From IMG/VR virus record IMGVR_UViG_3300045988_089196: a stretch of DNA of 64,000 nucleotides; one strand, 5' to 3'. The position numbers and the translations under genes were made by a program. This document shows positions 48,142-49,548 of the stretch, one piece after another; position 1 is the first letter of the stretch, and every line of letters begins with the position of its first letter. Below the pieces are notes generated by a model that did not search any database, was not told the origin of the DNA, and was given only the letters and a program-made list of their open reading frames with translations. The DNA is from a virus.

Positions 48142-49548
48142 ATGACTAATGCTCAAATTATTTGGAAATACTTTAAAGGCAAAGGTTTTAGTGATTGCGG
48201 AATTGCCGGTTTAATGGGTAATCTTTATGCCGAAAGTGGTCTTAATTCTATTAACTTATAGAACACCTATGAAAAAAAATTAAAAATGACCGACGCAGGA
48301 TATACCTCCGCAGTTGATGATGGAAGGTATAAAAACTTTGTAAAAGATGGGGCGGGATATGGATTGGCTCAATGGACATTTTGGAGCAGAAAACAAAATT
48401 TGCTTTAGTTCTGTCAAAGTCGAGGTAAATCCATTGGAGATTTAAATACTCAATTAGATTTTTTATATTAGGAGTTAATTACAAGTTTTTCTAGTTTAGT
48501 TAAAATTTTGATTTCTGCCACTTCTGTCACAGAAGCCTCTACCGCAGTATTACTCTAGTTTGAAAGACCTTCAGACTAGAGTTTTTCTATGCAACAAAAG
48601 AGAGCTAATTATGGTCAATAGTATTATAATAAATTTGCTAACATTTCAAATGTAATTGAAGGAGGTAATAAAATGAAATATAGCGATAGCAATAAACCAC
48701 TTCAATGTATGATGACAAATAGCACTTGCTATAAACAAACACGCACCATGCAAGTTAAAGGAATCTTATGGCATAGTACTGGTGCAAATAATCCTAATTT
48801 AAAAAGATATGTATAGCCAAGCGATAATGATCCTAACTACACCAGTTTAATAAATAAATTAGGAAAAAATACTAGCAAGAATGACTGGAATCATATATCT
48901 GTTCAAGCTGGATTAAACTGTTGGATTGGTAAATTGGCTGATGGAACAGTAACAACAGTATAGACAATGCCATGGAATTATCGTCCTTGGGGATGCGGTT
49001 CTGGGTCTAAAGGTTCTTGTAATAATGGATGGATTCAGTTTGAAATTTGCGAAGATGGATTAAATGATGCAAATTATTTTAACAAAATTTATGAAGAGGC
49101 TTGTCAAATTACTGCTTATTTATGTAAAATGTATAACATAAATCCATTGGGAACCACTACTTTAAATGGTATCACCGTTCCGACTATTTTATGTCATGCT
49201 GATAGTCACAAGCTAGGATTAGGATCTAATCATGCAGATGTAAACCATTGGTTTCCAAAATTTGGGAAAAGCATGGAAACCGCAAGAACAGATGTTTATA
49301 ATTTAATGTCAAATATCTAGGAGGATGATGAAGATATGACTGACGAGAAATTCGCTGAACTTATGAATACTTGGCTAACCAATAAAGCTAATGAAAAAGA
49401 GACATGGGGTTCCGATAATCTCGAATGGGCTAAGACAAATGGAATTATGGCCGGCGACAGCGCTGGAAGAATGATGCCAAATAAATTCTGTACTAGATTA
49501 GAAACAGTAACTATGATTAGAAGATTGGCGGAAAAGCTAGGACTTTAA
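48142..49548 (+). CDS. multi-domain endolysin: lysozyme-like (Phage_lysozyme2-type) domain, N-acetylmuramoyl-L-alanine amidase (amidase_2/PGRP) domain and an SLH-like wall-binding domain. In frame through 7 TAG codons.
   Basis: GNLYAESGLN..GYGLAQWT. Amidase ILWHSTG..QTMPWNYRPWGCG..HAD. C-terminal W..A..WAKTNGIMAGDSAGRMMP. No TAA or TGA between 48142 and 49546. An internal SD (GAAGGAGG) sits before the amidase ATG at 48661. Confidence 0.6.

Follow-up and report, generated by a model that had tools for sequence, protein, structure and literature searches.

We analyzed an endolysin gene at positions 48142-49548 of a 64,000-nucleotide (nt) stretch of viral DNA (IMG/VR record IMGVR_UViG_3300045988_089196), hereafter the window; all coordinates are positions in this window, on the + strand, with position 1 as its first letter. 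By its reading frame and its homologues, this segment forms a single gene that encodes a three-module endolysin; in it, TAG codons stand for glutamine (Gln), and two conserved internal ribosome-binding sites (RBS), each a Shine-Dalgarno (SD) sequence followed by ATG, precede the second and third modules. The gene probably gives three nested products: a full-length enzyme of a predicted 468 amino acids (aa) and 52.7 kDa, whose synthesis would require nine TAG readings; an amidase-SLH isoform that would start at Met178 (291 aa, 32.8 kDa, three TAG codons); and the SLH module alone, which would start at Met399 (70 aa, 8.0 kDa, no TAG codon). The features discussed are collected in Table 1.

A single recoded gene for a three-module endolysin

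The frame that opens at ATG 48142 contains no TAA or TGA before the TAA at 49546-49548, and comprises 468 sense codons plus the stop, as an earlier first-pass annotation had proposed for TAG read as Gln. That annotation mentioned two TAGs, both assigned to domain junctions, while nine are present in frame, at 48259, 48406, 48469, 48556, 48577, 48619, 48814, 48961 and 49318 (codons 40, 89, 110, 139, 146, 160, 225, 274 and 393, in that order). Seven of the nine fall within domains, the earliest at codon 40. The triplet it placed at 48616 is a CAA, with the TAG one codon further on at 48619; its position 49318 is correct. As to their setting at the joints, codon 393 does lie in a linker, whereas codon 160 lies in a helix of the lysozyme module. 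The observation was largely right, apart from such small coordinate errors and the selective account of the TAGs. Translated with the standard code, the same stretch falls apart into pieces of 39-117 aa.

Three domains had also been claimed, and two of them match strongly: Phage_lysozyme2 (PF18013) over its whole profile length at aa 3-165 (E 4e-35, 121.5 bits against a cut-off of 28.2), and Amidase_2 (PF01510) at aa 202-353 (E 1.8e-11, 45 bits against a cut-off of 26). The SLH profile (PF00395) matches aa 422-454 weakly in the window protein, with 19.5 bits, below the cut-off of 20.8, and is matched in 14 of 29 family members, with a best E of 5e-7. One SLH motif is present, where three is the usual number. 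In the AlphaFold (AF2) model of the product (mean predicted local distance difference test score 78.5), residues 169-176 and 393-399 form flexible linkers of low confidence. Foldseek relates the lysozyme module to the phi29 gp13 lysozyme domain (3csr; template modeling (TM) score 0.70 on target) and the amidase module to the folds of PlyL, PlyG, XlyA and PlyP100 (TM about 0.65-0.68 on target, Foldseek probability 1.0). The likeness of both catalytic modules to phi29 gp13 and to PlyL/PlyG/XlyA is one of fold, with sequence identities of 13-21%, and a profile search of PDB sequences returned remote matches only, to phi29 gp13 and PlyL. In the family alignment, His211, His352, His364 and Asp366 are invariant and are thus candidates for the zinc-binding His/His/Cys-or-Asp triad of Amidase_2. 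While phi29 gp13 is a tail-associated enzyme, the window protein is a member of a lysis cassette and adjoins a holin-like gene.

A word-index protein search returned 7890 proteins at E<=0.001, and the best 120 of these are all 443-487 aa long and all carry both catalytic Pfam domains. We retrieved 80 viral and 80 genomic loci for comparison. The lysozyme-then-amidase order occurs in 89 of them, each with both modules in a single frame uninterrupted by TAA or TGA, and a search of these 89 for split homologues, with separate genes at the joints, found none. The architecture comparison suggested by the first-pass annotation, which had looked to separate genes with other stop codons as the opposing outcome, thus returned fused genes in 89 of 89 loci. 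Because most of these homologous genes are entirely free of TAG (standard-code relatives), the fusion is unambiguously one polypeptide in standard-code phages. By blastn in distant mode, the gene had no match in 50,697 GenBank phage records. Related contigs are ~148 kb long, one of them binned with an Oscillospiraceae genome, and prophage homologues reside chiefly in Oscillospiraceae, Acutalibacteraceae and Lachnospiraceae; together these suggest a probable host among gut Clostridia, of the Oscillospiraceae type.

Since the succession of stop, SD and ATG resembles ordinary gene boundaries, and a standard-code list of open reading frames (ORFs) splits the region into fragments, one could read TAG 48619 and TAG 49318 as true stops of three separate genes, with the amidase and SLH proteins each made from its own SD and ATG. 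This is almost certainly wrong: the standard code also cuts through each domain itself to leave the short pieces given above, the TAGs coincide with conserved Gln positions, the residues beyond codon 160 are conserved and helical, the homologues are all continuous frames, and the phage encodes a tRNA with anticodon CTA.

Glutamine at the TAG codons

The window belongs to a TAG-to-Gln recoded phage (genetic code 15); metaproteomics has confirmed this code in crAss-like phages (PMC9523058). The suppressor tRNA (tRNA-CTA) is among 31 tRNAs that ARAGORN detects in the window together with a transfer-messenger RNA (tmRNA). Its acceptor end resembles that of the phage tRNA-Gln(TTG), a likeness that, judged by known tRNA-Gln identity elements, would imply Gln identity. 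The homologues have an invariant Gln opposite TAG codons 40, 225 and 274 and a nearly invariant one opposite codons 139 and 146, and between close relatives TAG and CAA exchange freely at Gln positions. With TAG as sense, long ORFs total 59 kb instead of 41 kb, a weak measure, as reading TAA as sense gives 68 kb. On the evidence of the alignment and the tRNA, all nine TAGs are predicted to be Gln codons decoded by the phage tRNA-CTA.

The tRNA array also holds other RNAs. The tmRNA lies at 16376-16691 (+; RF00023, 115.7 bits), with an ARAGORN tag peptide of DNDYFENYLAA, and a full-length ROOL RNA (RF03087, 350 bits) occupies 18987-19582 (+), between tRNA-Gln(TTG) and tRNA-Gln(CTG). Two more tRNA-like Rfam matches, at 19849-19967 and 20241-20325 (+), are not in the ARAGORN list; the former, at 119 nt, may hold an insertion or intron.

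Two conserved candidate internal start sites

Endolysins with internal starts of Type I and Type II are known from the literature (PMC12203907, PMC9430671, PMC4777826). The first-pass annotation had noted an internal SD and ATG before the amidase. This site is real, although the position given for its ATG, 48661, falls in the middle of the SD and the true ATG is at 48673; a second SD and ATG, ahead of the SLH module, had been overlooked. Both sites stand at the ends of the low-confidence linkers of the AlphaFold model.

We examined conservation in 57 distinct homologous sequences, which are not independent lineages, with -8.5 kcal/mol as the threshold for a strong SD. The Met178 equivalent is a start codon in 57/57 sequences, and a strong SD stands before it in 98% of them. 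As background, 2.5% of all codon positions reach this energy, mostly the two sites and their immediate neighbors, and the Met178 and Met399 sites are the sole conserved start codons with a strong SD. Conservation at the nucleotide level thereby backs the internal start first noted before the amidase. Met399 with its SD occurs in 70% of the sequences, that is, in every one with an SLH-type tail, and is missing where a Pro-rich linker leads to another C-terminal domain.

These patterns correspond to the two published kinds of internal start. An in-frame RBS and ATG in the linker between two catalytic domains make the Met178 site Type I by layout, and most family members have it at an equivalent place, a same-position-in-cluster criterion that we took from Pinto et al. 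(PMC9430671). The RBS and ATG in linker 393-399, kept with SLH-type tails and absent with others, make the Met399 site Type II.

Conservation is seen at the level of the RNA. The first linker peptide varies by lineage (VIEGGNK, QKEEMAK, AQKGGGS, ERGDDVK and others), while a GGAGG core upstream of Met178 persists in differing codon phases (EGG, KEE, KGG and so on). At the second site, TAG393 overlaps the 5' edge of the SD, its AG supplying the first two SD bases, and relatives have GAG there. Codon choice follows the same direction: in distinct contexts the Glu-Glu before Met399 is always GAGGAG, where GAG makes up 37% of the Glu codons in these genes, and the first Gly before Met178 is GGA, against 27% of Gly codons. 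In 45/45 distinct contexts the actual SD energy beats the mean of synonymous resampling. Predicted mRNA structure is weakest near codons 176-178 and 399-410, which are among the least structured parts of the gene.

A sigma-70-like match (TGGAAA-17-TATAAT, 10/12) lies at 49274-49302 (+), ~35 nt upstream of ATG 49336. Internal promoters were considered and set aside, since sigma-70-like matches number 32 versus 26.6 +/- 4.9 in shuffled sequence, no real excess and hence no evidence for them.

Origin and retention of the internal sites

An exhaustive search of representatives found many endolysins whose first residue is the exact counterpart of Met178, one of them a stand-alone Amidase_2 lysin. 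Clostridia prophages carry stand-alone amidase-SLH ORFs of ~300 aa that also begin there, and several of these have a purine-rich run of Glu/Asp codons followed by ATG before the SLH part, with the GAGGAGGA core in some. From these stand-alone lysins it follows that the SD and ATG arrived with a complete lysin ORF, upstream of which the lysozyme module was fused. The same Phage_lysozyme2 module also stands upstream of other catalytic domains, and most such joints retain a 'GG..M' motif. A Gly-Gly pair (SD-like) followed by Met may be a general trait of lysins with the lysozyme2 module first. In Clostridia prophages, 'GG..M' joints were seen in L128, L130, L131, L134, L139, L148, L153 and L160, at about 2480-2560 in each locus.

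This history gives some weight to the view that the internal SD and ATG are inert leftovers of fusion, or SD-like pause sites that aid folding of the upstream module, with only the full-length protein made. Initiation of many stand-alone amidase endolysins at Met178 means that the signals came with the module, the lysozyme module has been fused before several different complete lysin ORFs with the 'GG..M' joint kept, and gene fusion was proposed as the origin of such sites in the phi2638A paper (PMC12203907). Yet the signals are fully retained across lineages down to about 50% identity despite changes in linker length and sequence, the SD-favoring codon choice holds in every distinct context resampled, and the mRNA has minimal local structure around both. 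Experimentally verified endolysins, moreover, share this layout (PMC12203907, PMC9430671).

Other fusions serve as controls. Where the order is permuted (Amidase_2 then Phage_lysozyme2), the joint is Pro/Thr-rich and has neither ATG nor SD; where the lysozyme module has an N-terminal extension and is thus internal, its own start likewise lacks both. Signals of this kind are therefore lost when unneeded, which weakens the leftover explanation, and we consider it unlikely. The permuted loci are L077-L080, L082, L092, L100, L102, L106, L113 and L122.

TAG codons near the domain joints

The first-pass annotation had gone on to suggest a readthrough switch, in which leaky UAGs at the two joints and partial suppression would free lysozyme, amidase and SLH products. 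The suggestion was not borne out, and we regard it as very improbable, because the TAGs are spread along the gene, unconserved and not enriched at the joints. It is true that in the window, and in relatives at 97% and 87% identity, TAG160 lies 18 codons before Met178 and TAG393 lies 6 codons before Met399. Both TAGs, though, are kept only at >=87% identity (L001-3 at 97%, L163 at 87%); in L083, at 78% identity, the two codons are GAA and GAG, and distant recoded lineages have their TAGs at codons 40, 53, 89, 93, 118, 153, 254 and others, not at 160 or 393. First-linker TAGs do recur in three heavily recoded distant relatives (L071, L073 and L076), but these genes carry 9, 16 and 22 TAGs, and standard-code homologues retain fusion, SD and ATG without any TAG. 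Gln codons near the joints are TAG in 2/3 cases versus 7/20 elsewhere in the gene (p=0.54), and no bias of TAG to the lysozyme part was found (6/14 Gln codons versus 3/9 in the amidase part).

Suppression is probably incomplete, since the phage tRNA competes with release factor 1, and this counts for a switch. Leaky reading from 48142, however, would abort at codon 40, ahead of any complete domain, and five TAGs precede codon 160, so that codon 160 is not the first stop met. Nor is its position that of a boundary: TAG160 lies inside the Pfam lysozyme envelope (to residue 165) and the predicted last helix (148-169), with the linker at 169-176. The residues YYNKFA just past it are conserved in all relatives and helical in the AlphaFold model, and a stop at codon 160 would remove these conserved C-terminal helix residues from the lysozyme module. 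Comparison of the homologous sequences already largely refutes the switch, and separate products, if any, would come from internal initiation rather than from UAG termination.

In L071, L073 and L076, the linker TAGs stand beside the internal SD or a few codons upstream of it. An example is TAG TAG CAA TAG GGAGG in L073; the linkers of L073 and L076 are Gln-rich.

The lysis cassette and its TAG load

Two terminator-like hairpins bracket a three-gene lysis unit of a NAGPA (phosphodiester glycosidase) and SPOR protein, the endolysin and a holin-like protein. The first of these may add a further wall-polymer-cleaving activity, and its SPOR part may bind peptidoglycan. The third is a probable holin by position and composition; a Pfam search of its 113 aa returned no match. 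The TAA of the upstream gene is separated by 2 nt from ATG 48142, and this ATG lacks an SD (L163 is arranged likewise); translation of the full-length protein is therefore probably coupled to that of the NAGPA and SPOR gene.

Table 1. Positions of the endolysin gene, its modules and internal start signals, and of associated features in the window.
Feature	Position	Strand	Remarks
Suppressor tRNA, anticodon CTA	27795..27869	+	ARAGORN and Rfam; predicted to decode TAG
Terminator-like hairpin before cassette	47235..47262	+	
NAGPA (phosphodiester glycosidase) + SPOR protein	47285..48139	+	2 TAGs; first gene of endolysin unit
Full-length endolysin ORF	48142..49548	+	9 TAG=Gln codons; homologues 443-487 aa with the same Pfam domains
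Phage_lysozyme2 module	48148..48636	+	aa 3-165; last predicted helix 148-169 holds TAG codon 160 (48619-48621)
Internal SD 1, GAAGGAGG	48658..48665	+	7-nt spacer to ATG 48673
Internal ATG, Met178	48673..48675	+	Type I; predicted start of amidase-SLH isoform
Amidase_2 module	48673..49311	+	aa 178-390; TAGs at codons 225, 274
TAG393 + internal SD 2 (tAGGAGGA)	49318..49325	+	GAGGAGGA at same place in relatives
Internal SD 2, AGGAGGA, with ATG (Met399)	49319-49325, ATG 49336	+	Type II; predicted start of TAG-free SLH isoform
C-terminal helix + single SLH motif	49336..49545	+	70 aa from Met399
Predicted N-terminal peptides of internal starts			(f)MKYSDSNK and (f)MTDEKFAELMNTWLTNK
Probable holin, 113 aa	49550..49891	+	1 TAG; two hydrophobic stretches
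Terminator-like hairpin directly 3' of holin-like gene	49893..49931	+	

TAG accounts for 9/23 Gln codons (39%) in the endolysin versus 41/408 (10%) in the other genes of the window (Fisher p=4e-4). The flanking PhoH-like and GyrB/GyrA-like genes are TAG-free, replication genes are mostly without TAG, and ThyX (57948-58574) has 3. Only two genes exceed the endolysin in TAGs, those at 8015-8962 and 56756-57667 (+), with 10 and 11. These TAG-richest genes look like homing endonucleases, one with a DUF2726 tail after repeated Zn-ribbon-like units and the other of GIY-YIG type.

A further terminator-like hairpin, at 48552-48582 (+) in the lysozyme module, is absent in the 87% and 78% relatives and was treated as chance. 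It has 13 bp followed by TTTTTCT (-17.1 kcal/mol), and its arms include TAG codons 139 and 146.

Relation to known systems

Code-15 phages, TAG-rich lysis genes and internal-start endolysins are already known. What appears to be new is the occurrence of both internal-start types in one conserved family, the SLH-type binding module, and the overlay with recoding. No relevant report of two internal starts or three isoforms in one endolysin turned up in our literature search, though one may exist.

The closest layout is that of Ply2638A from staphylococcal phage phi2638A (Abaev 2013, PMC12203907), which likewise has a catalytic domain, an RBS and ATG in the linker, Amidase_2 and a wall-binding domain, and whose short isoform consists of amidase and binding domain, as predicted here. 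Its modules are an M23 peptidase and SH3b, in contrast to the Phage_lysozyme2 and single SLH motif of the window gene, which differs further in being TAG-recoded, in having a second internal site, and in that its isoforms are predictions. The Type II endolysins CTP1L, CD27L, CS74L, Lys170, LysIME-EF1 and LysP7951 (PMC4777826, PMC7098653, PMC9430671), from phages of Firmicutes hosts, several of them clostridial, have an RBS and ATG before the C-terminal binding domain, as here, and yield a free binding module able to join the full-length enzyme; the window gene is predicted to yield a free module that could do so. The binding module in the window differs in consisting of a helix and a single SLH motif, and a Type I site lies in the same gene. 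Short forms of both types bind the full-length enzyme (Ply2638A for Type I; CTP1L, Lys170, LysIME-EF1 and LysP7951 for Type II).

Borges et al. reported that recoded gut phages preferentially recode lysis genes and homing endonucleases, and interpreted recoding as a block to premature lysis (bioRxiv 10.1101/2021.08.26.457843). The window shares with their phages the suppressor tRNA, TAG in the place of Gln codons, replication genes with little TAG, and the TAG-rich lysin and homing-endonuclease-like genes. Unlike those and the crAss-like phages (PMC9523058), it represents another lineage, with a probable Oscillospiraceae host and relatives of ~148 kb, and its TAG load is graded over nested predicted isoforms as 9, 3 and 0.

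Predicted isoforms and the weight of the evidence

One recoded modular endolysin gene that yields three nested products through conserved internal initiation is, in our view, the probable reading. The sequences directly show the open frame, its domains, TAG at conserved Gln positions, and conservation of both the fusion and the SD-ATG pairs. Use of the internal sites, assembly of the isoforms, and a TAG load that sets timing or isoform ratio are all points that we infer from the comparisons above. With a TAG load this heavy, both catalytic products would depend on the suppressor tRNA, which fits the published idea of delayed lysis-gene expression. Incomplete suppression would then shift yield and isoform ratio, by way of nine, three and zero UAG readings, and would not free single domains.

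Several considerations weigh against this reading. Conserved SD and ATG signals reflect selection or history and are not proof of use; in the survey of Pinto et al., 15% of portal genes had predicted internal starts, which the authors held to be false positives (PMC9430671). Structural constraints could explain why Met178 persists, and SD-like motifs could serve to pause translation. Taken one sequence at a time, the resampling p values are modest (0.01-0.37), again from sequences that are not independent lineages. The host and its anti-SD sequence are both presumed. Without an SD at ATG 48142, the amount of full-length protein is uncertain, and both the three products and Gln at UAG in this phage are predictions from sequence.

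A more elaborate and rather doubtful proposal is a graded timer, in which the level of suppressor tRNA would set the ratio of the three nested isoforms, the wall-binding subunit coming first and the catalytic forms later. The TAG-free SLH peptide could be produced at any time, the amidase-SLH form would require three UAGs to be read and the full-length enzyme nine of them, and the latter would also be coupled to an upstream gene with two further UAGs. The single SLH motifs of differing isoforms might assemble into the usual three-motif SLH unit.

Implications

These results describe a large uncultured endolysin family of gut Clostridia phages that carries both kinds of internal start, conserved at the RNA level. 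TAGs near domain joints in recoded phages behave here as ordinary Gln codons with fast turnover, not as regulatory stops. For annotation, gene callers that use the standard code shred the 48142-49548 gene or begin it at Met178. The findings are also relevant to the mining of such lysins as antimicrobials. The gene offers a compact test bed for asking why phages keep short endolysin isoforms and whether stop-codon recoding times lysis.

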